DNA of 63,022 nucleotides, the filler included, from Basidiobolus ranarum (lineage: Eukaryota): the NCBI GenBank assembly GCA_040143965.1. It is 22 parts of 22 records of this genome, joined end to end, with 100 filler letters (N's around TTAATTAATTAA, not from the genome) between each part and the next. Parts side by side here need not be neighbours in the genome. Positions count along the whole stretch, not along the records: positions 5,765 to 8,545 come from JASJQH010002985.1; positions 8,646 to 11,425 come from JASJQH010002986.1; positions 11,526 to 14,302 come from JASJQH010002987.1; positions 14,403 to 17,178 come from JASJQH010002988.1; positions 17,279 to 20,053 come from JASJQH010002989.1; positions 20,154 to 22,927 come from JASJQH010002990.1; positions 23,028 to 25,799 come from JASJQH010002991.1; positions 25,900 to 28,670 come from JASJQH010002992.1; 14 more parts are not named here. The stretch is one strand, 5' to 3'. The position numbers and the translations under genes are program-made. Every line of letters starts with the position of its first letter. The stretch's first letter is position 1. This document shows, piece by piece, positions 5,765 through 63,022 of this stretch. The notes under the pieces are model-generated. The model saw only the letters and a list, made by a program, of their open reading frames with translations. It was not told where the DNA came from and did not search any database.

Positions 5765-8545
5765 TTTGATATAGTCTCCTGAATATTTTTATAGAGTTCT
5801 TCATACCCAAGGTTTAGCTCATACCCAACATGAATTTGTATCAATATCTTCATCAAAGCCCACCATTGTATTAACATTGCTGAATCAACATTCTTCCAGC
5901 TATCTGGCAGATACCTTGCAATATTGTGCCACTTTGAATTAAATTCTTCCCAGATATATGCATGGTCAACACCAGACAGAATGTCAAGTTGAATGTTCTT
6001 CTTCTGAAGCCACTTTCTGCATACTTGCACTGTGTTTTTCCATTCATACTTTTGAAAATACTCCTCAAGCACTTTGACTATTTTTGTACATCCTTGTAGT
6101 GAGACACTACTGAGGGTGCTTTGTGGTGTTTGTGCAGCTTTTTGCTTGCATTTAACTTTGGGGCTAATTTCAACACTTTGAAAAGTACCAGTTGAGGTTG
6201 GAGAGCCATGAGTCTTATTTGCTGGTGTTTTGGCTTATTGTGAGGTGCCAGGTGTTGGATAAACTTCCAGATTTAGCACTCTTGCAACTGGTGTACCTGG
6301 TTCCATGATGAAATTAAGCTTTTTTGCCAGTATATCCAACTTTGGAATTGCAGATGTTCATAATGGTATGAAGAATTTGGTAAGTGGGACAGTAGAGCCT
6401 AAACTCACTGGCTCCTTTGCTTTTCCCTTAGGTTTACTAACTTTCTGCTCTTTGAGTACTTCTTTAGCTGCTTTTCTTTTTTTCCAAGGCAATAATTGCA
6501 TACATTATGAGATGTTTCATGAATAGGCCTATACTAGCCTGATTGCCGTTTACTTGCAAAAACCCAGGATAAGCCACATGAAATAAGTCAAGAACCTCAG
6601 AGTAACGCCTGGTTTTTGTTTTTTCCATTATTGGCTCAAATCCAGGCCATTTTGGGCAAGATTCCACACAGTTTCCAAAATTTTAAACCACTTATCATCA
6701 GAGCAAGTGATGGCAGCTCTGACATTCAGAGTTCTTTGGTTTGCTGGTTTTCATATCAGATATCCACTTTCATGTGCTCAAGCAATTTTGGGTCATTGTG
6801 TAGGCTTAATGGTCCAACATATATTATGCTCTGCTAGATTGTCACAGTGATGCTCATATGTATGGTGTGCAATTGATTGAAATCCCATATGAGAATGGAT
6901 GGAGGGAGCAGCATGTTGCTGTAGCTCAAGTACAGCATTTTAAAGGTCTTGTATTATTGTTGAGTGACTCTCTAACTGTTGACTAGTTGCATCTGAATGC
7001 TGCATTAATTGCAATATTGCAGCATTATTGCTTGTCATGGCCTATATAGCAACTTCATAACTTTTACTTATGATTGCATACAACTCATTACACTGTTCCG
7101 CCTGCATTTCCCTTGTTGTAACTATTCTATCCAAATTTTCTACAGAGGGTTGTTCAATAGTTGGCAAGGTAGCTATTTTTGAAGTTGATGGTCTTGATGG
7201 AGTTTTGGTTGAACTTTGCTCAACTACTGATTTACTGTGTAATGCGGGATTAGAATCCCTTCACTTGCACTGTTACTTGAAGGGAACACATCTGGCAAAT
7301 TGATTAATGCTTCATCATTACTAGAGTTAGTTTTCAGCTTGCTAATGCCTTCCAAAGTGGATAGTGGATAGCTAGACTGCTCATCAATTAAGTCCTCTGT
7401 TCTTGATGGTTTTTTTCCTCTTGTGGCAGCAGGCTTGGGCTCGGAAGCCAATTTTGACTTCAATTTTGAATGCTTTTTGAATGGCATTGATATTTCCAGA
7501 TGGCAAACTTGGTGTAATGAAATTGCTTAGAAATAGCTTATAATAAATTAAAGTTGTCATCCATTACTGGAAATATCTTGTAAATCCCCTGATGACTCAT
7601 CTGTGACATCATCTCAGAATCAGCTGATGATATTAATGCGCTATACCTGAAATACTACCCTAATGTGGTAGGTGTTCTTTTTTCTACAATATCCTTCTCA
7701 TGCTGCAACGCAAATGTTTAAAGAAGACCTGCAATTATTGTCACAAATTCTTGTGCTATGAAAGCTGGAGGCTTCATCAAAAAAATAATCACAAGCATGG
7801 TCACTGTACAAAGCCACTAGTTGCACAAAGCCTGGTGTATAACAATTGTAATAAGTGCACTAAATCAACTTTAGTTTTGCCCATTGAGTCCTCTGACTGT
7901 AGTTTGCCTCAAAGTTTTGGTAACACTGCCAAAAGTCAAGATACTATGGAGTTACCACAGATATATGACCAGAATGATGTAGGTCAAAATGCAACTTTGG
8001 TCAAAACAGTAAGTCCAGACAACTTTGAGGACTTGCTGCTAGATGTTGACCTTGGTTATTCCAGTACTGATAGCAGAAAATCAGAAGTTGAAGAAGAAGA
8101 TGACGGTTTTGTTATGGACTCTTTGTTATTGGCAAACATTAGTTCACTCATGACACTTACTGTAAAGGAAGTAGCTTTGATTATTGAGGAGTGGAGAGTT
8201 CAATACAATGGACTTGTTCCATTGTGCCAGGATTTATCAGACCTTGGATCAATATATTAGAGTAAGTATGATTGAAATTGATCATGCCAGAGGGTGATGG
8301 ATATTACCAAATTGTGCTGCATGAATTTTAGAATAATATATCCAATATGAAATATACAGCACAATCTGGCACTATCATAGAGAACAAGACCATTCTTAGC
8401 AACCAGGTGTTTATTGGTTTTCTTACACTTTTACTACAGTTGATTGGCAACTGTTGCTTGCCACAGACCTGGTACAAGTGGAAAACACTTGTCAATTGTA
8501 TGACTTATAATCCTTTGGTAATTAAACTACCTTCATGCCCAAATG
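5765..8545. mobile_element. CACTA/EnSpm-like element, internal part: decayed accessory ORF1 (minus, starts ~7487) divergent from the transposase 5' end (plus, starts 7700)
   Basis: Homologous to copies at 20154, 21586, 23359, 31642 and 52410. The transposase N-terminus has CxxC..CxxCH and KLPSCPN, which leads into the tnp2 domain in the 31642 copy. Confidence 0.8.
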
Positions 8546-8645
8546 NNNNNNNNNNNNNNNNNNNNNNNNNNNNNNNNNNNNNNNNNNNNTTAATTAATTA
8601 ANNNNNNNNNNNNNNNNNNNNNNNNNNNNNNNNNNNNNNNNNNNN

Positions 8646-10627
8646 AGGTTTTACCATAGTAGCAACTGTCTTGTACTTGGTCCTAACAATGGCTTCTTGT
8701 ACTTTATATCCTAAAGCAGCTCCCCAAGCTAAGTTTGAGTTGGATGTATAATGTATTTGGTAGCAGGTATCTTCTTTGGTAGTGCTTCTGCACTTAGTTT
8801 GAGTACTATGGTCAGCAGCTGGTGCTCCACAAAAGTTGGCAAGTAGACCTGGGTTGCTTCCATATATGGTGTACTACGCAGATCCATCTGGGTAATTAAT
8901 GACTATTGCTCTTGCTTTTGTTTCCCAAGGTCTTCCAAGTAGTAGGTTGAAGTTTGCTTTTTGTCAGATGAAGACAGGTACAGTGTGCTCAACTCCTTGT
9001 ATGTTGCTGGGAGATGAATGTGTGACTCCTAACAGTGAAGACACTCCAGTTTTGGCATTGCGCATATTCCAGTGTATGTCAGTATCTATTGGGAGCAAGT
9101 GTTTGCCTGGTAATCACTTGTAGACATCCATTGGTATCACACAAATCTCTGACCCACTATCAATATGGCATCTTATAGGGTCTCCATGACTTGTCCTACT
9201 AGCTAGGGCTGTGGCCACTGAGTAGTATGTCAATGTAGGTGCTTCCTTGTTGATCTTGGGAAGTGGTTCATCATGAGTTGTCTGTATAATTCTTGCAGAA
9301 GGTTGATCTATAGGTTGTCTCCTAGTACATATGTTGTAATCTAGATTCTTTTTCACTGTAGGAGAAACACTGACAAGTTTCCCAATTGTGATGGAGAGGC
9401 AAGAGTCTAAGATCCTCTTGGTAAGTGTTGCAGGATCTGCCTTCTTGCTATTCTTGGATTGCATCTGATAGTTAGGTTGTTGTGGTGCTTCTTCAGCTGT
9501 TCTTGGTGTTGGTTTTGGAATGTTCTCAATAACAACCTCTGGCTCAGAAAATCTTGCCTTCTGTGTACCAGTAGTTCTTAGTTCATCAGGTGGAGAAGCT
9601 CACTTGGTTACATAAGCTTCAGCTAAGTGAGAAAAATCATCTTCATTATCAGATTTGAATGTTTGGTTTTGTTGTTGGTCAACAGCAAAGTGATTCATGT
9701 TCTTGTCAGGGTCTTCAACAGTTACCCTTCTGGTTTTGTTAACTGGTGGGCAGTAAGTTGCTTTCATACCTCCTCTTCCAAAGTTTGGCCTGACATTTCT
9801 GCCATTATGATCAATTATAAACTCTCTTGAGTCCAATTGGAGCTCTCTTTTGTTAAGTAGTTGATTTAATTCTGGACAGTCCTTCTTGGAATGCTTGATT
9901 GAGTCACACCATACACAATTAGATGGGAAGGAAGATTGATAGGTTCCTCCTTGGTAGGACTTGCTCTCAGTCTTCAAAGTGAGACATTCAAGTTTCTTGC
10001 TAATGTTGGATAGTTCTTCCTCAACATCAACTGTTCTGCTTTTTGTCAATGGTTCTTCTGATTTTGGTTGCTGTTGTTCCCTGCTCCTCTGGAGCATCAT
10101 CATGAGTGCTGAGTTCTCCTGACTGGCTAGGAGGACTTTCTTCACAATAGCAAGAGAAGGAATATCAGAGATTGATTGGCTGGTAGTTTCTTGATCTACT
10201 TTTGTCAGTAGGTGTTGGGATAAGGCATTGAATAGGTAGTTAGTGAGGGTAACTTCAGTGATAACAACTTATTAGATCACAGATGCTCCAATATTTTCAA
10301 GTTCTGAGATAAATTGTTTGGTAGGCATCTTTGAGAAGCTGGATTTGGCAAAGTCCTCCAAGTCATATATTCAGTAGGTATGGCAGGGTTCTCCATAGTT
10401 TTCTACTAAGTGTCCTTTCATAAGGCTCCAGTCTTTTAGTATGGAAGGGTTGGCTTGAAGTGCTGACATAATATCATCTTCACAGTAAGGCAGTAGTTCC
10501 TCAGCCATTCTGTCTTGAGGAACATTGTAAGCTTGGCAGAAACATTCCAATCTCCTGATGAATGCTCAAACTTTAGTTCCATCAAAGAAGGGAGTTCCTG
10601 GGGATCCGCTGTAGTGTGGAATAGGGC
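8646..10627 (-). mobile_element. Ty3/Gypsy gag-protease remnant
   Basis: Gag start PGTPFFDGTKV..FIRRLE; zinc knuckle CVWCDSIKHSKKDC; aspartic protease CHIDSGSEICVI and NLLLGRPW; interrupted by stops. Confidence 0.85.
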
Positions 10628-11425
10628 TGTTAACTTAAATATTCAGTAATAAAGCTTAATCCCACTACAAATCTCCAGCAAAGCTGAATTTTTTATACTG
10701 GAAGCTTAAAAATATCAATAGGAGATATATTCTTCACTCTATCTTTAAAGGGTAAAGACACACTTCAGTATGTCAATAGCTTGAAGACTTTATGAGAAAC
10801 AATTATTTCTGATAACAGAACTATCAGAAATCCTCAATACTACAAGGGTAGATAAAAGTCTGGTGTTTTCTCTAACTTGAAGTCTGAAGAAAAAGATATA
10901 GTTGTTTTGAGATTGGCAAAGACTTTGATTAATAGTTGGATATATTCTATGACTGTAAAAGTGAAGATAACCATGAAAGAATCTGTACTGCAATCTTCAA
11001 TAGTCAAGCCTAGTTGAGTTGCAATAGGAATCTTTATTATCTTACTATCATACAGGGTAGAATATCTAGTTAAGGAAAGGACAAAGAATATGATGTAGTT
11101 TGGATGGTGCTAAGGCTAGAAGCTTTTTCAATAGGGGGAAGGGTTGCTTATATAAAGAAAACAGCTTAGAATAAATGCTATGAATTGGGGGCTGAGAATA
11201 AATGCTATGAGTGGGTGGCTTAGCATTGAAGTGCTAATACGATCACTAATAAAGCAGCTGTGGCTTTGAAACTTAGAACACATTAGCATCAAGTATTGTT
11301 GCAGCTTTGTGCAAAATTTGAAGAGAATCCATTGGCTGGTTCAAAAGTTAGCACTAATTTTGTGAGCATCCTGAGATCCTGAATTCCTGTGTTCTGAATA
11401 TATGCTAGTGTTGATATTTGTGGTG
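10628..11425 (-). mobile_element. LTR-like sequence abutting or inserted into the Gypsy gag start
   Basis: Terminus TGTTAAC at 10628; minus-strand TATA (TTTATATAAG ~11150) and AATAAA (~11035); non-coding and CpG-poor. Confidence 0.6.
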
Positions 11426-11525: not shown

Positions 11526-12071
11526 AAGCAACTTAACCCAAGCAAGAGAATTTGTGGCTATCTACCAACTACAGAGAAAGAATGTGAAGTTTGAATGGGG
11601 ACTTGTTCAAGATGCTGCTATGGAGAAACTGAAGCAAGCACCAACATCACATCCCATACTTAGGCCACTAGAATACACAAATGCCTCAAGACTACCAACA
11701 CACATAGTTGAATCAAGTCCTACTGGAGCAGGTATTCTTGTAGGCCCAAATGACAAAGCAGTCAACCAATATGCATGCAGATATGAAAGTTGTTTATTCA
11801 ACCCCAGGGAGCAGAGAAACACCCAGATCAAGAGACAGCTACTTGGAGCTGTAAAGATAATCAAGAAACAAAAGGCACAACTCTCTATGACTCACTTCAT
11901 ATGTGAACCAGATGCAAGACCAATTATTGAGATGATTAAAAAGCCAGATCTACCAGATGATGCTACCAACCAATGGATGGCTTTACTCAAGATGTTTGAC
12001 TTGGTAGTAGTACACATACCAGGATAAATAAATGTTGTTCAAGATACACTATCAAGAATGGGATCAAGACC
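11526..12071 (+). mobile_element. Ty3/Gypsy RT-thumb/RNase H remnant
   Basis: FEWGLVQDAAMEKLK..HPILRP..YESCLFNPREQRNTQIKRQLLGAV..WMALLKMFDLVVVHIPG..NVVQDTLSR. Confidence 0.85.
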
Positions 12072-13880
12072 TGATAAAAGTGTTTAGGGGACTTGGAAGT
12101 GTTTTAGACATCATTTGGATTTGTTAATTAGACTCTTAAGTTTGAATGTATTGAATATGTCATATTTATAGTTTACTATGAAATAGGACTATTTGATGTG
12201 CTTAGATAATCACAAATGTGCCTGTTAATCATGGGTGAAAATTTGAGAAGATTTGGAAAAGTTTTGAGAAAATAGTGAAAATTGGTAAAAGTTATCTAAT
12301 TGATATTTCTATTAGTTACAGCAATAAACACACATTTTTCAATGCCAGAATTGAGTGCTAAATAATCAGACTATGAATAAACTACCTACTAAACAAGGAG
12401 CTGCTATTTATCCACTTTCTACTTTCCCACTCAACTTAATATTTTGTAATTCTCTAAGCCTAACTTATTTCTTAATAATTTAAAGGGCAATTTAGCTACA
12501 GACTAGGTTGAGATGTCAGCAATCAATCCTTCAGTAAGGCAATAGACTAGCTCAATTATATCATTCTCTATTGCTTGTCTAACAAAATGATGCCTAATAT
12601 CTACATGTTCTGTTCTAGCATGAAATGTAGGGCTTTTAGCTAATGAAATACCACTTTGATTATCTTCAAATTCACTAATAGCACATTTTGATGAAATATA
12701 AGTGTGTAAATAACATCCTTAAACACATAGCTTCTTGTTTAGTAGAAGAGGCAGCCATATACTCTGCTTCTGCAGTGGAAAGTGCTATGGTTGGTTGCTT
12801 TTTACTCTTCCAAGTCATGGCTCCATTGCCATAGAGATAAGTGTACCCAGTTATTGATCTTCTATCATCAAGTTTTCTTCCCCAATTTGCATCACTGTAG
12901 CCTTCAAAATTTTATGCATCAGGAGTGGCAGAGTATTCCAGGACCAAATCTACAGTTCCTCTCAAATACCTGAATATTTACTTTGCAGCAGTTTTGTGCT
13001 TAGATCCAGGATTTTTGAGATATTGACTGTGAGTTCTCATTGCCTCAGCAATGTCTGGATGTGTTCCAACCATTGTATACATTAAACTACCCACCAAGGT
13101 CTGATAAGAGAACAGCTGGCTTTGATTTGGGTCATTTTAAGCCAAATTGGATGAAATTTTGATTAACTTCACATTAAGATCCATTGGTGTTGATACAAGC
13201 TTGCTTTTCTCAATGTTGAAGCATTTTAGGATATCTAGTATGTATCTAAACTGAATCAGCATGATTTTTTGATTGGGTTTATCTCTCCTGTGTGAATTCC
13301 ACAAAAATAACTTAATATACCCATATTAGTCATCTGTAAGTGATTTGATAAGCTGCTTTCCATCTGATTAAGTGCTTCTAGATCATTTGTAGCTATGATC
13401 AAGTCATCTACATACAGTGCCAAGATAGGATTTCTACTTTCAGTTGCTTTAATATAAATGCTGCTATCTGCTGTGCATTTTTGGAGTTCCAGTATTTAAA
13501 ACAGGTATCTATCTTGTTTTACCAGGCCCTGGGTTCTTACTTGAGTCCATACAGCAATCTTTGTAGCTTACAGACCATATCAGAATGTTTTAAGTCTATC
13601 AATCCATCTGGTTGCTATGTATAGATCTCTTCTTTTAGACCACCATTCAAAAAGGCTGTTTTTACATCTATTTGATGTGGTTCAAGGTAATGGCTGCTTG
13701 AGAGTGTCAGGATTGCTCAAATGGAGCTAAACTTAGCTACTGGAGCAAAAGTTTCATTAAAAGCAACTCCTGGAGTCTGGAAATAGTCTTTTGCAACTAA
13801 TCTTGTTTTGTATCTTTCTGTGGTTCCATCAGCTTCATTTTTAACTTTGTAGACCCATTTGCAACCTACTTATTTTGCTT
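12072..13880 (-). mobile_element. Copia RT-RNase H remnant with PPT and 352-bp 3' LTR (12072-12423)
   Basis: Minus strand reads CKWVYKVK, ETFAPV, LALYVDDLII, KQPTIALSTAEAEYMA and HVDIRHHFVR; PPT GAGTGGGAA; the LTR matches 48096-48447. Confidence 0.9.
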
Positions 13881-13954
13881 GAATAGGGTTCAGAAACAGC
13901 TGGAATTTTTTCAGCCACTTGCTGAATAGTGCTGATTGTGTGTACAAACTACAA

Positions 13955-14302
13955 TCAGTACTGCAATAGCTGATGTCAACATCTAGCAGCATGATTGCAA
14001 AGTTGTCTGGACTTACCGGTTTGTCCAAAGTTGCATTTCTACCTACATCATTCTAGTCTATAACTGTGGTGACTCCACAGTATCTTGACTTTAGCAGTGT
14101 AACCAAAACTTTGAGGCAAAGCATAGCCAGTAGACTTAGTGAGCAAAACTAAAGTCTATTTTGTGCACATATTATTGTTGATATTCACTTGACTTTGTGC
14201 AGCTGGTGGCTGTGTACAGTGACCGTGCTTGTGATTATTTTTTCCATGAAGCCTCTGGCATTCATAGCACAATAATTTGTGACAATACTAGCACGGTGTC
14301 TT
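13955..14302 (-). mobile_element. CACTA-like transposase 5' fragment
   Basis: Reverse-complement homologue of 7730-8070. Confidence 0.75.
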
Positions 14303-14402: not shown

Positions 14403-16155
14403 ATTAAGCCCTGATAGGGATCATCTATATGTGTCTGCCCTGTCAGCAACCACTAAAGAAGACTCAGAAGTATGATATATTGCTTAAGGAGCTTCCTGGT
14501 ATATGTCAAACAAGAAAGATTGATTTTCCATCTTAAAACCCATCCAAACAAAGAAAGTCTAGTGGGGTTATGACTATGCACTAGATGCAGTTAGTAAGGG
14601 GACAGTTGTGCTCAATTTAGATCAAGATTCTGCAACACCATCTGCAAAATTGGATGATGTACTCTATGTACCAAAAATAGCCAAAATTCTGCTCTCAATA
14701 GGCCAAACAACAACTCAAGGACTAACTTTTGCATTCAGCAATGTTTGATGCACTATTGTGAATCGGATTAATATAAAATTTGCTACCAGAATTAAAGCTC
14801 TAAACTAATACAAGCTACAAATCAAGAAATTCCATTCTGAGCATGCAAACTTGGCTGAAACCAGTGAGATGAGCTGTCAAATATGGCATAGAAAATTAGG
14901 CCACATCGGGGAACAAAACTGGCCCATATGATCCAAAATCAGCTTGTTTCAGGGCCCGAAATTGAAAACATTACCAAATTGAATCAGTGTGAAGGTTGCA
15001 TATATAGAAAACATAACAAACAGCTGTTTAAAGCTCTGCAAAGATCTAATCCACTCTGAATTTTGCCTTGATTTATTCTGACCTATGTGGGCCTGTGGAA
15101 AGCATCTGACCAGGTGGCAAAAGGTGCTTCATAACCTGTTTTGATGACAAGACAAGATATACCTGGGTATTTTCCCAAGCAACGCTAGATTGAAATTCAG
15201 CATAAAAAATAAGAATACTAAGCAGTGATAATGGTGTAATGTGCTTCTCCAAAGACTTTGCTAGTGTTAATTGTGAACATGCAATTAGGCAACAAACTAC
15301 TGTACCTTACTCCACTGCAAAAGGGAGATGTAAAATGTGCTAATAGGACCATAGTGGAGATGGCAAGATTAATGCAACATGATCAAAAGTTAGAATACCA
15401 ATATAGAGCTGAATCTGTCTTCACAGAAATCTGTTTCTAACATAAATGTCCAACAAGATTCCTACAAAATATAGTACATTGGAAGCCCTGAATGGTTCAA
15501 AACCAAGTGTGAAGCTTCTCAGGATCTTTGGTTGCATCCCATGTGGCCTAATTCCTGCTCAACAATGCCCTCAATTGGAACTTTAGAGCAGAAAATGCTT
15601 ATTTCTTGGTTACAGTGATGGATCAAATGTCTACAGACTGTTTGATACTACAAATTAGAGGTTAATTAAGTGCAGAAATGTGATTTTTTGATGAAAATGC
15701 AAATTTTTTACCTCAGATCACAAATCTGGATCCAGAAGACACAATCAGCACTATTCAGAAAGTGTCTGAAAAAATTCCAGCTATAGATAAACCCAATTTA
15801 ACCATAATTCCAGCTCCAATTTCCATGGAGGATAATTTAGAACCTACAAGATGATACAGAAGGAGGAATAAGCCGGGGAACTGGTGGAATGCTTCAAATC
15901 ATGATGTCTATGCTTATGCAGCCACAGACTATAAATTGTTTCTTCACCTCAGGATAATAAAATGTGGGTTTTAAGTCCTCAATCATCCGGAAGAAAGGCA
16001 ATACATTGCCTGTGGGTTCACAAAGTTTAAAGCTGAGCTGATAGAACCATTGAATGGTGCAAAGTAAGACTAGTTGCAAAAGATTATTCCCAGACTCCAG
16101 GAGTTTATTGTAATAAAACCTTTCCTCCAGTAACAGACTTTAGCTCCATTAGAGC
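14403..16155 (+). mobile_element. Copia pol remnant (protease, GAG-pre-integrase, integrase, RT start)
   Basis: VLYVPKIAK, WHRKLGH, CEGCI, SDLCGP, ANRTIVEMAR, LRIFGC and KTFPPV motifs, with many stops and frameshifts. Confidence 0.88.
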
Positions 16156-16159
16156 TCAC

Positions 16160-16945
16160 TGAGTATTATCACACTACAAGCTGGTATAAAAATATTGAAA
16201 GTGCACAAAGAATATTATCAAAAGTTTGAAGGGAAAAACACAATTCAAGAATCCATAAAGTGGCTTCAATAGAAAAACATTCAACTTGACATTCAGTCCC
16301 ATGTAACCCTTTAGATCTATGAAAAGAATATAATACAAAGAGACATATGCTCCAGAGAATCTGCCAGAGATGTGGAAATATATAGATTTAGCCATGTTTT
16401 TACAGTGGTGAGCTTCAATGCAGATATTAATAAAAACTTGTGTTGAATATGAGCCAAACCTTAGGTATGAAGAACTCTGTAAAAGTATACAGAAGAATGT
16501 TTTAATGAATGTAGCGATCTTGGCCTTGTTCCATTGTGCCAGGATTTATTGGACCTTGGATCAATATTTTAGAGTAAATGTGATTGAATTTGATCATGCC
16601 AGAGGGTGATGGATAGTGCCAAACTGTGCCAATAAATTTTAGAATACTTTATCCAATAAGATATATACTGCACAATCTGGCACTATTACAGAGAACAAGT
16701 CCTTTGAAAGCAACAGATTAGTGTTCAAATTATGAATGTGTTTAATTTTAGTCATGCTCTTCACACATGTATTGATCTATTATTTCCTCACAAATCAGCC
16801 AATAATGTGCAACTGTTTTGCAAGAGCCTCAAGTTTCACTCCAAATATTCAGAAAATTAAATAGAAGGAAATTTGACTACTTTATGACGGTAAGCCAAAA
16901 GTCAATCCAAAATGGATCAAAATTATGACAGCTTTCTTACAACTT
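16160..16945 (+). mobile_element. CACTA-like element: 3' part of ORF1 and left subterminal region
   Basis: 16400-16495 is the reverse complement of 5780-5875; 16760-16940 is the reverse complement of 28485-28670. Confidence 0.7.
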
Positions 16946-17178
16946 TTTGAGCTGGAATTAGGAAATATGCTGTGCAACCAAAGATCCTGAGAGGATCCAC
17001 ACTTGGTTTTGATCCATATAGGGCTTCAAATGGAATAAAATATTGTAGCAATCTTGTTGGGCATCCATTTTTGATATAGACTGCAGTGGAGACAGATTCA
17101 GCCCAATATTGGTAATCTAACTTTTGATCATGTAACATTGATCTTGCCATCTCCACTATGGTTCTATTAGCACGTTCT
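16946..17178 (-). mobile_element. Copia integrase fragment
   Basis: MEMARSMLHDQKLDYQYWAESVSTAVYIKNGCPT..LRIFGCTAY. Confidence 0.85.
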
Positions 17179-20153: not shown

Positions 20154-20925
20154 CTGGTGTACCCAGTTCCATGGTGAAATTAAGCTTTTTTGCCAGTATA
20201 TCTGACTCTGGAATTGCAGATCTTTGTAATGGTGTGAAGAATTTGGTAAGTGGGACAGTAGAGCCTAAACTCACTGGCTCCTTTGCTTTTCCCTTGGGTT
20301 TACTAACTTCCTGCTCCTTCAGTACTTCTTTAGCTGCTTTTCTTTCTTTTCCAAGTCAATAATTGCGTACATTTTTGAGATGTTTCATGAATAGGCCTAT
20401 ACTAGCCCAATTGCCATTTGCTTGCAAAAACCCAGGATAAGCCACATGAAATAAGTCAAGAACCTTCAGAGTAATGCCTGGTTTTTGGTTTTTCCACTAC
20501 TGGCTCATATTCAGGTGATTTTGGGCAAGATTGCACACAGTTTCCAAAATGTTAAGCCACTCATCATCAGAGCAAGTGACAGCAGCTCTGACATTCAGAG
20601 TCTTTTAGTTTCCTGGTTTTCTTATGAGATTTCTACTTTCATGTACCCAAGCAATTTCAGGTTGTTGTGTAGGCATAATGGATTGACACATATTCTGCTC
20701 TGCTAGATTGTCATAGTGATGTTCATATGTATGGCATGGGATTGATGGAAATCCCATATGAGAATGGATGGAGTGAGAAGCATGTTGCTGTAGCTCAAGT
20801 ACAGCATTCTGAAGGTCTTGTATCATTGTTCAGTGACTCTTTAACTGTTGACTAGTTGCCTCCAAATGCTGCATTAATTGCAATATTGTGGCATTATCAC
20901 TTGTCATGGCCTGTATAGCAACTTG
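20154..20925 (-). mobile_element. CACTA-like ORF1 fragment
   Basis: Close match to 6288-7056. Confidence 0.8.
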
Positions 20926-23027: not shown

Positions 23028-23358
23028 GATACTCATTATGGCTCCAATACAAAGCCTAAAATAACTAAATCAAGGCATGCATATTGATTCAAATTACTAC
23101 AGCAGTTAACCCAGTAATTTGCCATTCAAAAACTAGATTTTTGCAAAAATTGCTGGATATTGAATAACACATGCCAAATTTGAGGATTAATATTTCAACA
23201 TGTATGAATACCATCAAAATACTATCAAGAAACTGCCATCACACCATCAAAATCCCTGGCAGCATGCAAGCCACCATTATTGTGACAGTTCTCTGAAGGT
23301 TTTGCTATTTTGGACGGTGGATCCAATCCAAAGCATATCAATTTTATTTTTGTTAGGG
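23028..23358 (+). mobile_element. CACTA-like right end with terminus ..ATTTTTGTTAGGG
   Basis: Matches 49498-49822; homology among the four copies stops exactly at GGG. Confidence 0.8.
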
Positions 23359-51160: not shown

Positions 51161-51598
51161 CCCTAACAAAAATAAAATCAATTTGATCTGGATTGGATCC
51201 ACCCTCCAAAAGAGCAAAACCATCAGAGAACCATCACAATATTGGTAGCTTGCATTCTGCCAGGGAGTTTGATAGTGTGATGGCAGTTTCTTGACAGTAT
51301 TTTGATGGTATTCATACATGTTAAAATATTGATCCTCAAATTGGCATATGTTATTCAATATCTGGCAATTTTTGCAGAAATATAATTTTCAAATGGCAAA
51401 TTACTTGGCTTACTGCTGTCAGAATTTGATTTAATATGCATGCCTTTATTTAGATATTTTAGGCTTTGTATTCCAGCCATAATGAGAATTAAAGAATACA
51501 AGAATCTTATTGTGCTTAGTCTCTACATATGCACATACTTGACTGATTAGATATAACTCAACAACATCAATATGCTTTACCAGCAAACTAACAGTTGA
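51161..51598 (-). mobile_element. CACTA-like right end in inverted orientation, terminus CCCTAACAAAAAT
   Basis: Reverse complement of 49390-49822. Confidence 0.85.
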
Positions 51599-51698: not shown

Positions 51699-52400
51699 TG
51701 ATTGGAATAACTTATATTTACACATAAACCTCTAGGATTATACGTAGGTTTGTATAAGTTTTGATCCTTTTCTCCCACAGCTAAATAATCCCCATTTTGA
51801 TTGGTGATGGTTCATCCTGACTTATCAAAATTGAATTTTTTCCCTTATGCATTAGCCTTGCATACAGATATTAAATTCTAGGTAATATCTAGAACATGTA
51901 GTATATCCTTAAAAGTATATACTTTCTCTTCAGAAGGTCCAGTTAAATTGACTTGAATTGTTCCCATTCCAATAGCATCAAATGTGGAGTCATCTCTCAT
52001 GAAAACCTTTCTAATTGAGATTTCTTCATAGTTTACAAACCAATATTTTCATTTGTGTAGCTCCAGAATCAATATACCACATCTGAGAATCCTTGTTGGT
52101 AGTCATAGATAGAGCAGATATGAACAAGTGAACTTCTGTTGTAACCACATTTCCAGATTCAGTATGTTGTTCTTCTTATGCAATTCTTTTAAAGCAATCT
52201 TCACTTAAATGGCCTGTTCTTTTACAGTAATCCCAGAATGTGTTACTCTTCTTCTTAAAGCACTTTTGACCTTTATAGGAAGGTTTCCCATAGCCTATTA
52301 AGGCATTTTCTTCATTCTTTTGGTTGAGTCCAGATTTTCATAAATCTTCTTCTAGAAGTCAGCCAAATGCTTAATTTAAGGTCAAACTTTCAGATCTAGA
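51699..52400 (-). mobile_element. Copia gag C-terminus and protease remnant
   Basis: Zinc knuckle DYCKRTGHLSEDC and protease WYIDSGAT. Confidence 0.88.
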
Positions 52401-52409
52401 TTATAAAAT

Positions 52410-53591
52410 AATAATGCCATTCATAAAGCTTTCAAAATCTAAATCAAAATCATCTTCCAAGCCAAAGCCTGCTGGCATGAAAGGAAAAGAACCAGCAAAA
52501 ACAGAGGACTTAATTGAGGAGCAGCATAGTGATCCGCTATCCACTTTGGAAGTCATTATCATGCTGGAAGCTAACTCAAGTAATGATGAAGCCTTAATCA
52601 ATTTAGAAGATATGTTCCTTTCTAGCAATAGTGCAAGTGAAGAGATTGTAGTCCCCTAATTACCTACTAAATCAATAGTTGAGCAAAGTTCAACAGAAGC
52701 ACCATTAAGATCATCAACTTCCAAAATTGCTACTTCACCAACTATTAAACAACCCTCCATAGAAAATTTGGATTGAATTATTGCAACAAGGGAATCACAG
52801 GCAGAACACCATAATGATTTGTATGCAAGCATAAGTAAAAACTATCAAGTTGCTATACAGGCCATGACAAGCAATAATGCCACAATACTGCAATTGATGC
52901 AGCATTTGGAAGCAACTAGTCAACCGTTAGAGAGTGACTCAACAATGATACAAGGACTTCAGAATGCTGTACTTGAGGTATAGCAACATGCTGCTCCCTC
53001 CATCCATTCTCATATGGAATTTCAATCAATTCCATGCCATACATATGAATGTCACCATGACAATCTAGCAGAGCAGAATATGTGTTGGACGACTAAGCCT
53101 ACACAATAACCCAAAATTGCTTGGGCATATGAAAGTAGAAATATCATAGGAAAACAAGCAAACCAAAAGACTCTGAATGTCAGAGCTGCCATCACTTGCT
53201 CTGATCATGAGTGGTTTAACAATTTGGAAACTGTGCAGAATCTTGCCCAAAATTACACCAAGTTCACAATCTGAAAATTTCAGTGCCATTCAAAAAGCAT
53301 TCAAAGTCTAAATTTATATCAGCTTTCAAGCCAATGCCTGCTGGCACAAAAGGAAAAAAACCAGCAAGAACAGAGGACTAAATTGATGAGCAGTCTAGCA
53401 ATCTACTTTCCACTTTAGAAGATATTAACATGCCAGAAACTAACTCAATTAATGATGAAGCATTAATCAATATACCAGATTTATTCCTTTCCAGCAATAG
53501 TACAAGTGAAGAGATTGTAGGCCCCCATTTACATAGTAAATCAATAGTTGAGCAAAGTTCAACCATAACACAGAGTCTTTTGGTTTGCCGG
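52410..53591 (+). mobile_element. CACTA-like ORF1: one long and one short partial tandem copy
   Basis: MPFIKLSKSKSKSSSKPKPAG at 52414; ORF1 restarts at ~53285. Confidence 0.8.
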
Positions 53592-54455
53592 TGTGGTGGG
53601 GTAGCATTGCTACCCATGGGCAGGTTGACTTATCTCTACTCCAAGCTCATATCTTTACTATTACACAATTTCTATTTCATTATCCATATTTGACTTAACC
53701 AAATTTTCTAGCCAATCATATCACACCATTAGTATTATCCCCTATATTTCAAATTTATCAGTATTAACCCACATTAGCCCTATTATTTTCTGGAAAATTC
53801 TGCAATCTTCTGGAACATTCCACCAGATTCTTGGAATATTTGATGATTGATTGAGTTTTGACCAATCAAAACTTGATTTTGCTGGAACATTCCATGACTT
53901 TCTGGATTATTCTACAACCTTCTTGAACATTCCATGAATTACTAATCTTATGATTATTGATAATATCATAACCCAAGATTATCACAAATAGAATACTCTG
54001 GAACTCTCTGGAAATTTTCATTAGTAATCATTTCTACCTTCAGAAAAGTATAAATAGGATCCATATCTTTTCAAATAAAAATCATCCTGGTTTTCAACTA
54101 ACAATTACTACATGTGATCACCCCTTATTTTATCACTTCTTACAAGACCTTTGAAGAGGAAGATCAAGAGAGAGTACTAGAGGCAGTTACAGGCTACTGT
54201 GTGACTAGAAAGGACTTAACTGGCTCAAAGGAAGTACTGACAGGTAGGTGTTATATATCTAATATTTTATATTTTTCCCCTAGCTTTGTCTGCATAGTCA
54301 AGGAACATTTCATATCCTAGGATAAATTGCTACTAGTGCATCCTTGTTCAAGACCCTGCTGGCTGAGTTTACAGTAGTTTTGATTGGATATACCCTTTTT
54401 ATCTGATCATTCTCAAAGGACATTAAAGCCAGTATATTCTTTTGTCAGGTGCCAG
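53592..54455 (+). mobile_element. LTR inserted into the CACTA-like ORF1
   Basis: Starts TGTGGTGGGG exactly where CACTA homology stops; GGGTAGCA-T-TGCTACCC hairpin; repeated CTGGAACATTCC motifs; TATAAAT at ~54049. Confidence 0.65.
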
Positions 54456-55309
54456 NNNNNNNNNNNNNNNNNNNNNNNNNNNNNNNNNNNNNNNNNNNNT
54501 TAATTAATTAANNNNNNNNNNNNNNNNNNNNNNNNNNNNNNNNNNNNNNNNNNNNACTCACCTTATAAAACTATATCGTTACGTCATCTGATATTTTCTT
54601 AGCACATTATCTGCTGAGAAAGATCTATGGCCATACGATTATCAATTCCTGTATAATTTGTTAACTGCGGGTAAGATCAGAAATTTGAATTAGTAAGGCA
54701 AAGTCGAAGACGATCGACTCCTTTTCGGCCCTTGTCATCGGATTCGGTTTTAGAAAGTTGGTTTAATAGTTGTGCTTATGTTTCCAGACATGTGATTGTT
54801 TCTTCGAATGATCGAATTGTTTGATTCTTCCAGTTTTGATATTTCCGACATCTTTGTGGGCGGAAAATGTTATTGGAACGGAGAACCTTTTCACGCATGT
54901 GAAATTCACCTATGGCAACGTGTGTTACATTGGAGTTCATGTGATAATTAAGCTTATAGCCTTGGACGCATTTGAATTTATTGAGTAAATGCTGATTCTT
55001 GACAGTAAAAGAGTGTTTGTCACAGTAGTCCATGATCCCAGAAAGGCGCTGGTAGCTCGGGGTGTGAATACTCCTAACCATACAAATTAACGCAACTACT
55101 ATATAGCACTATTCGTCAGTCAATACATGATTTTCCAGGAAAGGGGCTACATATAGGTAAAGATCTTATTTTGTTGATGATAATGCGATTGGACCATTGA
55201 TGCTTATTTTAAATTTCACTACAGCTCTTTGTATAAAGAAGGCATCACCCTGAATCCTGACAAAACTATATCTTGTCTTTTCTTGATTCCATTGATTTTC
55301 TTGGTTACA

Positions 55310-56286
55310 ATGTGGAGCGCCGAACAGCCATTTATCATTCCTCTGGAGCCTATTTTTGATAAAGTATACCATGCTGTTCTTGGTGAATCTTATACCTCAT
55401 TCAAGTTCGTAGAGGGAGTAACACCTCTTTCAACGGTTCCAGAAGTCGCTACTACTTGCATCCTCTACTTGATTACCATCTTTGGAGGACAGTACCTTAT
55501 GAAAAATAGAAAGCCTTTCCAATTGGAATTCCTTTTTAAACTTCATAACCTATTTCTGACCACATTATCTGCTGCTCTTCTACTGCTCATTGCCGAGAAC
55601 ATTATTCCTATTATTTGGAATGAGGGTGTGTATGGCTCCGTTTGTAACCAAACCTCATGGACTCAACGATTGGAATTACTATACTACCTAAACTACCTGA
55701 CCAAATATTATGAACTCATTGATACCATCTTCTTGGTACTGAAGAAGAAAAAACTGGGTATTTTTATGTTTCCACACTTATTACCACCATTTTGCATACT
55801 AATATATATATGATGGTTTAGAATTTTTGCATTATTATCACCATAGTCTAACAATGGTCCTATGTTACACTCAACTAGTCGGTAGTACCGCTGTGGTAAG
55901 AATTTATTTGTGGTTTTTCGATTGAAAAGGCGTTTACTCACATATTGTTATAGTCTTGGGTTCCTATCACTCTGAATCTTTGCGTCCATGTTTTCATGTA
56001 TTACTATTATTTCCGTGCGACTGCTGGTGTTCGTATATGGTGGAAGAAGTACTTGACTACTATGCAAATTACTCAATTCATTCTTGACCTTGGGTTTGTT
56101 TACTTCTGTACTTATAATTATTTCGCTTTCAATTTCTTTCCCGCCTTCCCACACGTTGGTGATTGTTCCGGAACGGTTGGTGCCGCTCTTTTCGGATGTG
56201 CACTTCTCTCATCTTATCTAGTGCTATTCATTAATTTCTTCCGCAAAACATACAAGAAACCCATGTCTAAGCCGAAGTCAAATTAA
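55310..56286 (+). CDS. Fatty acid elongase, GNS1/SUR4 (ELO) family
   Basis: Exons 55310-55757, 55822-55895 and 55954-56286: KYYELIDTIFLVLKKKKLEFLHYYHHS, HVFMYYYYF, WWKKYLTTMQITQF, SYLVLFINFF. Confidence 0.95.
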
Positions 56287-57412
56287 GGACAAAGAGAGAA
56301 TTACTGGAACAGTAATTTTCCTTTTTTCATACATATCCTAATTCATCATTGTAGAATTTAGTTGAACCCTCTCTTTGGTTGTACCATAGATTGGCATACT
56401 CTTGCGCGAACCTTCGAATTGAATAAAATACTAATTTAATATTGATACATGCCTTATTGCTCATCTGGATCACGTCTGGGATGTAAGAATCCAGTTGTTG
56501 AAAAATCCGTGATTGCTGACGCTTGTTCCGTTGTGTGTTACCAGTGCGATGAGATATATACCTTATTGTAGTACCAATTATGAATGAACACAAAATGACC
56601 AACCAATTTCTCAAAATGGTACAGTTATTATTGTTCAATTAACAGATATGAGGTGATTGATTGGGTAAGTTATATCCTCGCAATGATATCGCTGCAGGGT
56701 TTAGAAATATATCTGTGGAGTAGCCTACAAATGATCAAGGAAATATGGTTCGCTTGGAAAAAGAGCACACGGAGCCAGGACTAATTGGCTGAGGGTTGAG
56801 AAAGTAAAATTATCTGCAGTAGTCACTGTCAATGAATAAATAATCTAGAATATTGGTCAGACAGGGTAGTTGGATTTCCACATAATTGGATTAAACGCAG
56901 CAATCGTTACAGTCTCTAGAGCAACCAAACGTTCCCCTAATGGAGTTATAATCACATCACATGATTACTGTGTAGCATTTGATGCAGTAACCTCTATTTT
57001 TATAGATTGGACGAATTATTCCTAGAACGTTGGTTTTATAGAGCAAACCAATGGCTTAGATAATCTCAGTTTCAGTCATGAAAAGTAAACATGGTTTGAC
57101 CTTTCTAACTGTGATACATAACGCCTTGGTCAAAAGTCCGTAATATTCTCTACGAGTATGGGCTCAAATGTCCGTTGTAACTTCACTTTCAAAATATACT
57201 AAATTCAATTGTTTTTGGATGCTGCTAGTATGAATTAGTACGAGACTTTACATCGCACAATGCTCTCCAAGTCTTTAGATCGGTACAGTCGAGGGTTACA
57301 AAAATTCTATATNNNNNNNNNNNNNNNNNNNNNNNNNNNNNNNNNNNNNNNNNNNNTTAATTAATTAANNNNNNNNNNNNNNNNNNNNNNNNNNNNNNNN
57401 NNNNNNNNNNNN

Positions 57413-58139: not shown

Positions 58140-58428
58140 GTTAAATTCAGCATAGCAGACTACAATTGACTTATGGAACTAAGATATCACGAACTATTCT
58201 CAAGAGGATTTTACTTAGAAGTTCTCAGATATATAGATTTTTCAAAGAAGCCTCGAACTTTGCACACATGTTCCTGGGACCTTCCTTAACACATTCTACA
58301 CATTTGTTTGTTTACATCTTGACAAAACTATGAATGTCAACTGAATACTCAATAAATCAACAAGTGAAAACCATCAATTCTTCTAGTTCTCCAAAGCACA
58401 TCCAACAAACTCCTAAAATACTTCAACA
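58140..58428 (-). mobile_element. Solo or partial LTR of the family at 3019-4175
   Basis: Minus strand starts TGTTGAAG at 58428 and aligns with 3030-3300 and 3542-3800. Confidence 0.75.
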
Positions 58429-60267: not shown

Positions 60268-62241
60268 ATTGCAGTACTCCAAAACTTTGTGTTGGGACTA
60301 TCCATAGCCTCCTGTACTGATTTGGGCTCATCAGAAAAGGTTAAATTAGCACTAGGCTCCTTTTGGCTTGTGTGAGAGTAGTAATCAGGTGGAGATCTCA
60401 TCCAATTGGATGGCCTAAGATGGGAAATTGGCACTACAACTACTGGTACCAATTTAGGCAATGAAAACACCTTGGGCCTGGTTGAGGAGACTGCAGGTGA
60501 AGAACTTTTGAATGTTTTTCTCACTGATCAGGATCTGGTGAGAGAATGAAGAATTTTCATCAATTTGAGGTTGTTTTTCTTGATCCTGGATTGTTTTGAT
60601 TGAAAATTTTTCTTCTTCAGCAATTTTCACATCCCTTCTCTTGATTGGTATCTTACTTTTGGTGTCATACAGTCCATACCCTTTTGTTCCAACCCAATAT
60701 CTCAAAAAAAGAGATATCTGGCTTTTTGGTCTAATTTTGATCTCTTCTGGTCTGGAATCAATACATCTGTGGTATTTCCAGAAACTCTGAGATTAGCCAC
60801 ATCAGGTTTACTTCCAAACCAAGCTTGATAAGGTGTCATAGCTAATAGAGACCTAGAAGGACATCTATTCTTAATATATACTGCAGTTACAACCAATTCA
60901 GCTCAGAACTGTTTTAGTACATCTTGATCAAGAAGCATTAATCTTGCCTTTTCCATTATTGATCTGTTGGCATGTTCTGCTACTCCATTTTTCTGTGGTG
61001 AATTTGGCACTGTAGTCTGCTATTTTATCCCATGTGATGAGCAGAAGTTAGAGAAGAGTTTTGAGGCATATTCCTCTCCATTAACAATACAGATAATCTT
61101 AATCTCTAGATCTGTTTCAGTCTCCATCATTGCTTTGATTTTCTTGAAGGTATCAAAGGCTTCATCCTTACTGGCCAGAGTGTACACCCAAGTATACCTT
61201 GTCTTATCATCAATAAAGGACATAAAATACCTTTTTCCACTTAAGGATTTTGTCTGCATTAGGCCACACAAATCTGAGTGTATCAGGCCCAATTTGTAAT
61301 CAATTTTGCTCATTCCAGAGCCCACAAACAGCTCTATGTATTGCCTAACATATAGGCAACCTTCACATAGCTCCAGATCTGGTGGAATCACAAAATGTAG
61401 TCCCAAAACCTGCTTCTTTTTGATTAAATTTCTCATATTTTCAGCTCCTGGATCAACCAATCTCCTATGCCAGATTTTCCAGCCTATCTCTTCAACTTTG
61501 GCAGTATTAACTTGTAAATATATTGGCATAATATAATGAGGTTTATACTAGTTATTTTGCATAGCTCTAGAAACTATGAATTCCCTTTTTGATCCCTGAT
61601 TGTACAGCCATTTTGATCAAAATTAAAGCAACATCCCTCAGAGGTAGCTTTACTCACTGATAACAAATTTTTTGCTATCCCAGGCACATATAGCACATTT
61701 TTCAGTGTCAAACAAATGTCCCCAGAGATGCCTCCAAGATCCACTACAATTTCTCCCACTCCCAGACCTTCTAGTGGCCGGTCATCTCCCATGTAAACCT
61801 TCTTGGTTATGTCAGTTTTGAGTCTCTTAAACCAGTTTTTTTGAATAGAGAATTACTCAGAGGCTCCAGAACAAATATATCATGACCTACAGTATTGTTC
61901 AGAGGTCACTGATAGGGTAGAAATGAACAAAACTTCCTCTTTGGTTGAAATCTGATTTGCTTGTTTGGACTTCTCATATTTGTTGTTATTTCTTGATTTG
62001 CAATCTTTAAAATGGTTTCCTGGTTTGCTACAACCATAGCATAAACCTGGTTTCCTTCTTCTGTAGCCTTTGTACCTGCCAAAGCTACATTTTAGAGCTC
62101 CAAATAGAGCCACTTCCCCAAATTCTTTTTCCAAATTCTTACTTGTGAGGTGTTGATCCATTAGCCTTGCAACCACAAACTCCAAAGATAACTTGTCCAA
62201 TCTTGCTTCCAAACCTGTAACCAAGTTTAAATACTGTTCTG
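60268..62241 (-). mobile_element. Copia gag-protease-integrase remnant, same family as 17279-20053
   Basis: CYGCSKPGNHFKDC, VLYVPGIAKNLLSV, WHRRLV, LIHSDLCG, FIDDKTRYTWVY; colinear with 17745-19265. Confidence 0.92.
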
Positions 62242-63022
62242 CCCTTACAAGAATAATATCAATTTGATCCGGATCATATCCACCCTCTAAAATAGCAAAT
62301 CCATCAGAGAACAAACACAGTATGAGTAGCTTGCATTCTGCCAGGGATTTTGATGATGTAATGGCTGTTTCTTGACTGAATTTTGATGGTATTCATACAT
62401 GTTAACATATTGATCCTCAAATTTGGCATGCTTTATTCAGTATCCGGCAATTTTTGCAAGAATCTAATTTTCAAATTGAAGTCAACAAATGACCTGCCAC
62501 AAGTAGATGTGTCATTGCTTGAATAGATTACCTCATGGCTAAAACAATGATATTGTGTAATGTGATCTATCTCACCAAGAAGTCTGTCTTGCAGCTTTCC
62601 TAAAAATACCATCAGATTATCACACAAACAAACTAGTCTGAATTATAGCGGAACTTACTCTGTGCCCATGGATTGGGCTTTGTTGCTGTTATTGTCCTCA
62701 AATAATGCAAGACCTGTGAGCACATTGAAAAGAGCCCTTGGTTGGAAGGTTAATATACTCTGGAGTCTCCTTAACCTATTATATTGCATCCATCACTGAT
62801 TTTTCTGATACATTGTTAATCAGATTAGCATTTGGTAATACTGATAATTTCACATAGAGCAGCATTTCATCACAAGGGCACTCCATTGGGAACTCCCAGA
62901 ATGTATAGCAGGGGCCCATAATGTCAGAGCATTGTGAAAGATGCAGCAGGGAATGTATTGAGTACCAGCATAGATTCAGTCTATCTTTTTGAAACATGTA
63001 ATAAAGTTTTTCATATCCAATT
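62242..63022 (-). mobile_element. CACTA-like right end and transposase 3' region, inserted in Copia gag
   Basis: Terminus CCCTTACAAGAAT at 62242; HSLLHLSQC..MGPCYTFWEFPME (62779-62997). Confidence 0.85.

Follow-up and report, generated by a model that had tools for sequence, protein, structure and literature searches.

In the window, the whole stretch of 63,022 nucleotides analysed from Basidiobolus ranarum, CpG dinucleotides have been erased from repeats while genes are spared. The loss is near saturation, with ~95% of ancestral CpGs gone, and it is best read, with a probability of roughly 0.65, as transposon-confined CpG methylation followed by decay of 5mC to T. The window consists of 22 contigs of ~2.76-2.78 kb each, joined by N44-TTAATTAATTAA-N44 spacers, and divides into 13 transposon contigs (Copia, Gypsy and CACTA) and nine genic contigs (Table 1). 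Pooled transposon contigs contain 59 CpGs where 1216 are expected (observed/expected ratio, o/e, of 0.05), whereas the genic contigs contain 609 against an expectation of 897 (o/e 0.68). The distribution per contig is bimodal, with 13 contigs at 0.01-0.10 and nine at 0.36-0.87. TpG displays an o/e of 1.35 in transposon contigs and 1.11 in genic contigs, and CpA of 1.39 and 1.10, respectively. Depletion is present in all three transposon classes seen and affects all four NCG contexts, whose density in transposons is 3-13% of the genic density (arithmetic from counts). Repeat-specific, near-complete CpG loss across the transposon classes had been described in an earlier note, whose counts of four CpGs in each of 8646-11425, 17279-20053 and 60268-63022 and ten in 41341-41520 proved exact. 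The interval it assigned to the phenomenon, 5765-63022, does enclose CpG-poor transposons but takes in seven CpG-normal genic contigs as well.

Table 1. Repeat, mixed and genic features of the window, with their CpG content.
Feature	Position	Strand	CpG content	Remarks
Repeat half of mixed contig	2883..4343		1 CpG in 1461 nt	~threefold tandem unit; outside the interval of the earlier note
Unique half of mixed 2883 contig	4344..5664		28 CpG in 1321 nt	
CACTA-family transposon contig	5765..8545		o/e 0.08	
CpG-poor contig	8646..11425		o/e 0.04	Weak retroelement-type DUF4100 match
Gypsy-type retrotransposon contig	11526..14302		o/e 0.03	RT_RNaseH domains
Repeat contig	14403..17178		o/e 0.10	Related to 45979 and 11526 contigs
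Copia contig	17279..20053		o/e 0.04	gag, RVT_2
CACTA-family contig	20154..22927		1 CpG, o/e 0.01	
CACTA-family contig	23028..25799		o/e 0.02	Two inverted copies of family segment
Copia contig	25900..28670		o/e 0.06	RVT_2 (E 5e-30), rve
CACTA-family contig	31642..34411		o/e 0.06	Transposase_21 match
Genic control contig	34512..37280	-	o/e 0.87	
Genic control contig	40249..43014	+	o/e 0.61	Cysteine-dioxygenase-like ORF
CACTA-family fragment	43115..43238	+	3/3 ancestral CpGs kept	Near family consensus; abuts genic DNA
Gypsy-related repeat contig	45979..48739		o/e 0.07	
Repeat contig	48840..51598		o/e 0.03	
CACTA-family contig	51699..54455		o/e 0.06	
Genic control contig	54556..57312	+	o/e 0.77	ELO fatty-acid elongase gene
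Solo copy of 2883 tandem unit	58172..58407	-		Within partly CpG-depleted stretch of genic contig
Copia contig	60268..63022		o/e 0.04	Integrase, Pol_BBD

The Copia contigs starting at 17279 and 60268 are 82% identical across 1535 nt, and the CACTA contigs starting at 20154 and 5765 form the youngest long pair, at 89.5% identity. An ORF at 33055-33348 (+), in the contig starting at 31642, matches Transposase_21 (tnp2) with an E-value of 7.6e-9 and 35.5 bits, above the 28.6-bit cut-off; this is the exception among CACTA-family ORFs, most of which have no Pfam match. An Atlas match to Plavaka, with a score of 0.85, is a lead only. A second copy of the 8646..11425 contig was not found within the window. 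A 135-nt Copia stretch common to the 2883 and 25900 contigs (94.8% identity) contains zero informative CpG sites. In the genic controls, exon 1 of the ELO gene displays 86% identity to a Basidiobolus meristosporus protein, and a 482-aa ORF of the 34512 contig displays 52% identity to a B. ranarum protein; on gene homology the host thus belongs in Basidiobolus or close to it.

CpG loss happened in place, after the copies had diverged from a CpG-normal ancestor. A pile-up of the CACTA family was built on the 5765..8545 contig as reference; the copy at 43115 was left out of the rate and context counts and kept in the tally of states at ancestral CpGs. Ancestral CpGs were inferred at 57 of 1476 dinucleotide positions, which gives the family ancestor a CpG o/e of at least 0.89 at 41.7% GC, and the states now found at these positions are TG (145), CA (101), TA (19), CG (14) and other (34). 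Over 49 HSPs, comprising 24,150 aligned columns, there are 236 CA/TG differences, compared with 3-61 for each of the other double-transition classes. In the 36 HSPs of at least 300 nt, CG is never conserved in both sequences, CG faces TG or CA 46 times and TG faces CA 217 times, while the six other double-transition classes sum to 152. Since the ancestor was CpG-normal, no CpG is common to any two copies and TG-versus-CA differences are in excess, the loss took place within the copies themselves, each decaying independently, which supports the earlier note in its inference of CpG mutation within the repeats. Aligned pairs at 67% to 89.5% identity are all saturated for CpG loss, the sole CpG-intact copy being a 124-nt near-consensus fragment.

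These data bear directly on the proposal that no process within this genome is involved, the CpG-poor contigs deriving from another organism or the transposon families having been CpG-poor on arrival. The contigs are separate sequences and the two CpG classes barely overlap, as such an origin would predict, yet the proposal is very improbable: the family ancestor was CpG-normal and its copies decayed independently, the CpG state switches within the 2883 and 57413 contigs, and the repeat fragment of the 43115 contig lies next to a Tom7 gene. The switch from 1 to 28 CpGs between the halves of the 2883 contig means that both CpG states exist in one genome. One CpG of the solo copy of its tandem unit, located in the 57413 contig, reads TG in 3/3 units of the 2883 contig. 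Neither organism mixture nor CpG-poor arrival can be reconciled with the mixed contigs and the TG/CA polymorphism.

Short repeat fragments within genic DNA escape CpG loss. The CACTA-family fragment at 43115 departs from the majority sequence of the other copies at only 1-2 non-CpG positions; the six other copies depart from it at 7-19 positions, over all 124 columns and with CpG sites counted. At the three CpGs of the fragment, the 18 states of the six other copies are TG (9), CA (6), TA (2), AG (1) and CG (0), in agreement with the earlier alignment, its example of TA, CA and TG at one site included. The 43115 contig had been taken there as a CACTA copy, which is correct for its first 124 nt, but the remainder is unique genic DNA. 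Intermediate copies are almost absent, such that a copy is either near-consensus with its CpGs intact or fully decayed.

Classical Neurospora-type RIP, which is RID-dependent and converts CpA to TpA, targets repeats and produces a dominance of C>T transitions, as seen here, and nothing further in the sequence favours it. In contrast to its predictions, TpA/ApT is 0.78 in transposons, below the 0.85 of genes, (CpA+TpG)/(ApC+GpT) is 1.60 in transposons, the opposite of RIP, and C>T at NCA (58/1027, 5.6%, in the CACTA alignment) does not exceed that of the other non-CpG contexts. Dinucleotide indices and context table together refute classical RIP for these contigs, rendering it scarcely credible, and the earlier verdict of "not classical RIP" stands, with CpA and TpG in excess and TpA not. 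The process resembles Neurospora-type RIP in its C>T transitions in repeated DNA and in the escape of short fragments, and differs in that the target is CpG rather than CpA, TpA is not built up and strand clustering is absent. On the basis of composite RIP indices, a study of Entomophthorales, a neighbouring order, suggested RIP outside Dikarya (PMC10515909, in the text available); in the main text of that study, as available, "CpG" occurs 0 times, and classical indices applied in this manner would miss the CpG signal entirely.

Across CHG and CHH contexts of the CACTA alignment, without the 43115 copy, no non-CpG target of C>T was seen; decay of the CHG type was rejected, as C>T at CHG (27/466) is no different from that at CHH (101/1890; p=0.73). 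Hits fall on either strand, independently site by site. Strand clustering of TG versus CA outcomes along copies was not found, runs tests giving z values of -1.7 to +1.8 across all copies tested, none significant, and strand-clustered mutation was rejected on this basis. TA outcomes account for 19 of 265 mutated states, or 7.2% against 5.6% expected (one-sided binomial p=0.17), and with no excess of CG>TA double hits the earlier suggestion that they signal an active mutator loses its footing. The 5' neighbour appears to influence loss. When the two strands compete, the TCG cytosine is mutated 69 times versus 32 for its partner cytosine, and by site TCG wins at 18 versus 3 (sign test p=0.0015; 23 sites, one family); extra families contributed few additional sites, and T won at 3/3 of these, each covered by 3-4 copies. 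Among the CpGs that remain, those preceded by T on one strand or the other number 15/59 in transposons versus 355/609 in genes (p=1.6e-6), and the order of preference for loss, TCG > ACG > GCG/CCG, is graded, ~2-3 fold. In the youngest long pair (5765/20154), pairwise non-CpG divergence amounts to 3.2% transitions plus 1.5% transversions and per-lineage CpG loss to 0.945 (95% interval 0.85-0.99) at ~2.4% background divergence, which by the authors' arithmetic places CpG decay at ~40-90x the background transition rate. Per cytosine, CpG decay is at least 25 to 60x faster than C>T elsewhere.

Speed and context raise the possibility, which is nevertheless doubtful, of an active repeat-directed CpG mutator that prefers TpCpG, in which a methyltransferase-like enzyme or deaminase would turn C or 5mC to T. 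Its targets would be repeats that are long or clustered, and it might operate during a sexual or pre-meiotic phase, as proposed for Pucciniomycotina. Such an activity would fit the loss of ~94% of CpGs per lineage at so little background divergence, the 5' preference (T > A > G/C), which emerges from each of two independent tests and whose direction matches the TpCpG bias described in the available text of Horns et al. 2012 (PMC3318451), and the near all-or-none pattern in which the 124-nt fragment keeps 3/3 CpGs versus 0/18 in six other copies, short isolated fragments escaping as with a length threshold. Nevertheless, TG and CA outcomes lack strand or run clustering, CG>TA is not in excess, no non-CpG target was seen, the preference is merely ~2-3 fold and all four NCG contexts, not TCG alone, are reduced to a small fraction of their genic density, while region-wide methylation with weak T:G repair accounts for the same data. 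That the Basidiobolus lineage possesses an active CpG mutator which prefers TCG, spares short fragments and converts copies from CpG-normal to CpG-free within ~2% background divergence is accordingly considered unlikely; if true, the TpCpG "RIP-like" mutation of Pucciniomycotina would be no peculiarity of one lineage but a form of genome defence of ancient origin in fungi.

Under the preferred reading of CpG methylation followed by 5mC decay, transposon bodies and repeat arrays, and not genes, would carry dense symmetric CpG methylation, with a DNMT1-type enzyme, a DNMT5-type enzyme or both, together with HELLS and CDCA7F, as the likely maintenance system. Methylated C would become T, CpG turning into TG or CA according to the strand that mutates first, and decay would proceed independently per copy and per site; 5mC would be the intermediate and its deamination spontaneous rather than enzymatic. 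CpG-specific loss with reciprocal gain of TpG and CpA is in line with this reading. Against passive decay are the high speed, above the 10-20x background of mammalian CpG decay, the scarcity of copies at an intermediate stage, and the TCG preference, unlike mammalian 5mC decay, which is highest in the ACG context. B. meristosporus is listed among fungi with CDCA7F in the available text of 10.1101/2023.01.30.526367, where CDCA7-bearing species invariably possess HELLS and, with few exceptions, DNMT1, B. meristosporus not being a named exception in that text. 5mC limited to repeats is described for the early-diverging fungi Phycomyces blakesleeanus and Linderina pennispora (PMC11258239, in the part available). 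As counter-evidence, a 2026 review, in its available portion, puts 5mC as near-undetectable in early-diverging fungi, which it describes as 6mA-rich (PMC13297926). A literature search on Basidiobolus covering 5mC, DNMT1, and DNA methyltransferases together with transposable elements yielded no account of CpG-depleted transposons in this lineage.

The closest parallels are the transposons of Austropuccinia psidii and Puccinia graminis, in which, according to the available text of PMC8063080, only transposons are depleted of CpG, classical indices give no sign of RIP and the CpG loss of Basidiomycota transposons is ascribed to 5mC deamination following CpG methylation. The present case differs from that portion of the study in that the host, Basidiobolus, belongs to Zoopagomycota, outside Dikarya, in the extreme depletion (o/e 0.05) and in that every alignable copy is already saturated, whereas an age gradient is reported for A. 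psidii. The TpCpG hypermutation of Pucciniomycotina, a group from which Basidiobolus lies far removed, likewise consists of C>T changes at the CpGs of repeats in which a 5' T is favoured, and in both cases repeated DNA alone is affected; however, the Microbotryum target is strictly TpCpG in the text available (PMC3318451), while here the preference is graded and ACG, GCG and CCG have nearly disappeared as well. A loss of this extent indicates that repeats in this lineage have been subject to prolonged and intense CpG-directed marking or mutation, extending a basidiomycete-type transposon defence to Zoopagomycota and contrasting with the usual summary of early-diverging fungi as 6mA-rich and nearly without 5mC (PMC13297926, as available). 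Erasure of CpG from repeats is what CpG methylation would be expected to leave behind, and the present example, from an early-diverging lineage of fungi, is unusually extreme. High CpG mutability and TCG bias together pose the question of whether fungal "RIP-like" CpG hypermutation is 5mC decay only or enzymatic. As in vertebrate CpG depletion, CG is converted to TG or CA with the products in reciprocal excess, but unlike in vertebrates the loss is limited to repeats, genes retaining an o/e of 0.68. Mammalian CpG o/e is roughly 0.2, the transposon depletion described here being ~4-5x deeper.

The 63,022 bases do not represent a single locus but comprise 22 size-sorted contigs of 2755-2782 nt, named here by their first window position and joined by N44-TTAATTAATTAA-N44 spacers (window 2783-2882 and each later joint). 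The pieces were put together artificially, and no feature can cross a joint. The per-contig ratio of observed to expected CG dinucleotides (CpG o/e) is bimodal with a gap between the two classes: 13 contigs display values of 0.01-0.10 (59 CpG observed against 1216 expected, o/e 0.05), while the other nine range from 0.36 to 0.87 (609 observed against 897 expected, o/e 0.68). The counts of an earlier sequence-only note, four CpG in each of three named contigs and 10 in 41341-41520, proved exact; the interval to which it assigned CpG erasure (5765-63022) mixes transposon and genic contigs. Fully genic contigs have CpG o/e values of 0.61-0.87, and the pooled value of the nine contigs lies mildly below 1, perhaps through AT-biased mutation in general or through a degree of gene methylation. 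CpG-poor and CpG-normal states coexist within one genome. The first 1461 nt of contig 2883, a repeat array, contain one CpG and the other 1321 nt contain 28, while contig 43115 begins with 124 nt of a transposon family and continues as unique genic DNA.

Three kinds of transposon make up the CpG-poor contigs: Copia, Gypsy-type and DNA transposons. The whole analysis rests on about 36 kb of such sequence. The label CACTA, given to the DNA transposons in the earlier note, is supported because one ORF of this family matches Transposase_21/tnp2 above the Pfam cut-off. Ordinary genes occupy the CpG-normal contigs, including an ELO fatty-acid elongase, a cysteine-dioxygenase-like ORF, ankyrin repeats and Tom7. 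Gene homology points to an organism in or near Basidiobolus: the ELO exon shares 86% identity with a protein of Basidiobolus meristosporus, with Basidiobolus paralogues (63-65%) as the next matches, and a 482-aa ORF without a Pfam family has as its sole match a Basidiobolus ranarum protein (52% identity).

Features of the window (window positions unless contig nt are stated; contigs by first position)
Feature	Position	Strand	Basis or description
Copia contigs	17279, 25900, 60268		gag, RVT_2, rve, Pol_BBD domains
Gypsy-type contig	11526		RT_RNaseH domains; relatives 14403, 45979
DNA-transposon (CACTA) family	5765, 20154, 23028, 31642, 51699		common sequence
Transposase_21/tnp2 ORF	33055-33348		Pfam match, one ORF of CACTA family
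Imperfect palindrome, most of contig	23028-25799		centre near 24621; two inverted CACTA-family segment copies, about 1.17 kb each, 79-95% complementary
Repeat array	2883-4343		roughly threefold tandem, unit about 230-300 nt
Tandem units of contig 2883	contig nt 167-464, 693-970, 1063-1291
Solo copy of the tandem unit	58172-58407		in contig 57413
Partly CpG-depleted stretch	57683-59112 (contig 57413 nt 270-1700)		12 CpG in about 1430 nt; CpG-dense flanks
ELO elongase gene	55184-56283	+	one short intron, between about 55780 and 55953
497-aa ORF	41084-42577	+	intron-free; weak cysteine-dioxygenase (CDO_I) match

Independent decay of an ancestral CG in two copies often leaves TG in one and CA in the other. 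Over 49 pairwise alignments (24,150 columns), CA/TG differences numbered 236, compared with 61, 54, 31, 22 and 3 for other double-transition classes. In the 36 alignments of at least 300 nt, which reuse overlapping copies so that counts are not independent, no CpG was conserved between any two copies; CG stood against TG/CA 46 times and TG against CA 217 times, with 152 differences in total for six other double-transition classes. A pile-up of up to seven CACTA copies on contig 5765 (1476 dinucleotide positions at a depth of at least 4) yielded 57 inferred ancestral CpGs, corresponding to an ancestor with o/e of at least 0.89 and a GC content of 41.7%, which was therefore CpG-normal. With the 43115 copy included, the states at 59 ancestral CpG sites were TG 145, CA 101, TA 19, CG 14 and other 34. 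As a control, 52 sites mixed CA and TG, compared with 4-15 for each analogous mix of other dinucleotide pairs. CpG loss occurred in place, separately in each copy.

The C>T process is CpG-specific. C>T changes at CHG (27/466) equal those at CHH (101/1890), and non-CpG C>T amounts to 3-11% per copy in every context. Classical RIP was rejected, as the earlier note had argued, with TpA/ApT of 0.78 in transposons versus 0.85 in genes and (CpA+TpG)/(ApC+GpT) of 1.60 versus 1.23. That note had also read CG>TA double hits as a hint of an active mutator. This argument did not hold, as TA accounts for 19 of 265 mutated states (7.2%) against a background, the C>T rate at CpA within the same alignment, of 58/1027 (5.6%; p=0.17). 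In addition, TG and CA outcomes follow one another at random along each copy (runs-test z of -1.7 to +1.8), with no sign in these tests of a processive one-strand event. Both the missing CG>TA excess and the missing strand clustering speak against the main rival explanation, an active mutator preferring TpCpG, which we consider less likely. In its favour are the speed of decay, a bias in 5' context and the fact that copies are nearly all either intact or erased.

The youngest long pair, contigs 5765 and 20154, aligns over 771 nt with 89.5% identity and displays, outside CG/TG/CA sites, 3.2% transitions and 1.5% transversions. The same alignment contains 12 TG/CA sites, three sites with CG against TG/CA and no shared CpG. 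A simple two-lineage model puts the CpG loss in each lineage at 0.945 (95% interval 0.85-0.99), and at 0.97 (0.92-0.99) when the three youngest pairs are pooled. By our own arithmetic, CpG decay outpaces background transitions roughly 40-90-fold, and taking the residual CpG as a mutation equilibrium would set a bound of at least about 25-fold. In mammals the excess is 10-20-fold. The speed of decay goes beyond the routine picture.

A second feature beyond the routine picture is a context preference, tested for the most part in a single family. Because a hit on one strand destroys the CpG, the balance of TG to CA at any given site compares both cytosines directly. Over 56 ancestral sites, the cytosine of TCG was mutated 69 times and its partner 32, while that of CCG was mutated 38 times and its partner 62. 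Counting by site, which avoids inflation from shared ancestry, TCG won 18 and lost 3 (sign test p=0.0015) and CCG won 5 and lost 16 (p=0.027). Other families added three sites, all favouring T, at a depth of just 3-4 copies. The context of surviving CpGs is an independent line of evidence: a 5' T on either strand is present in 15/59 in transposons (13 contigs) versus 355/609 in genes (p=1.6e-6), and a 5' C in 35/59 versus 224/609 (p=0.001). On our reading of the context table, T>C rates making new CpGs do not differ as needed to account for the bias. Together, strand competition and surviving CpGs therefore point to the order TCG > ACG > GCG/CCG, spanning about 2-3 fold. A TpCpG-preferring mutator would fit this gradient, but all four NCG contexts were erased.

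The best-supported reading, to which we assign a probability of about 0.65, holds that CpGs are densely methylated in transposons only, where 5mC would then mutate to T. The literature supports it indirectly. B. meristosporus is named among the fungi with CDCA7F in a study where every species with CDCA7 also carries HELLS and nearly every one DNMT1, and it is absent from the exceptions named there (10.1101/2023.01.30.526367, accessible text). 5mC is described as confined to repeats in Phycomyces blakesleeanus and Linderina pennispora, and 6mA as high in Basidiobolomycota (PMC11258239). If a methyltransferase itself catalyses deamination, the methylation and mutator readings overlap.

Few copies escape. 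The 124-nt fragment of contig 43115 retains 3/3 ancestral CpGs, compared with 0/18 in six other copies. Outside CpG, it departs from the majority state of its relatives at only 1-2 positions; the other copies show 7-19 differences from this majority (all 124 columns, CpG sites included). The fragment is therefore young or source-like rather than an old protected copy. In contig 57413, whose middle is partly CpG-depleted around the solo copy of the 2883 repeat, one CpG of that copy reads TG in each of the three tandem units of contig 2883; a second is GG there and uninformative. Methylation of large repeat domains would account for these few cases, and a length threshold would do so just as well. 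The depleted stretch, the only region of intermediate CpG density seen in the window, possibly represents a gene-proximal insertion that is old or short.

Transposon-specific CpG depletion in rust fungi is put down to 5mC decay (PMC8063080), hypermutation with CpG bias is described in Rhizoctonia (PMC4014442) and a TpCpG "RIP-like" pattern in Pucciniomycotina (PMC3318451). Our literature search for Basidiobolus found no report of transposon CpG depletion, and a genome paper on the neighbouring order Entomophthorales uses, in its main text, classical RIP indices only and nowhere the term "CpG" (PMC10515909). This kind of loss is already known; what distinguishes the present case is the lineage, the extreme degree and the graded TCG preference.

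Among the genes, ELO has several Basidiobolus paralogues (63-65% identity). For the 497-aa CDO_I-like ORF, most of the best relatives (43-47% identity) are metagenome-derived proteins without a named source; those with a name include some from a few bacteria (Microcoleus, Eremiobacterota) and from Mortierella. Its Atlas neighbours include giant-virus protein clusters, and the phyletic pattern of this gene looks patchy.
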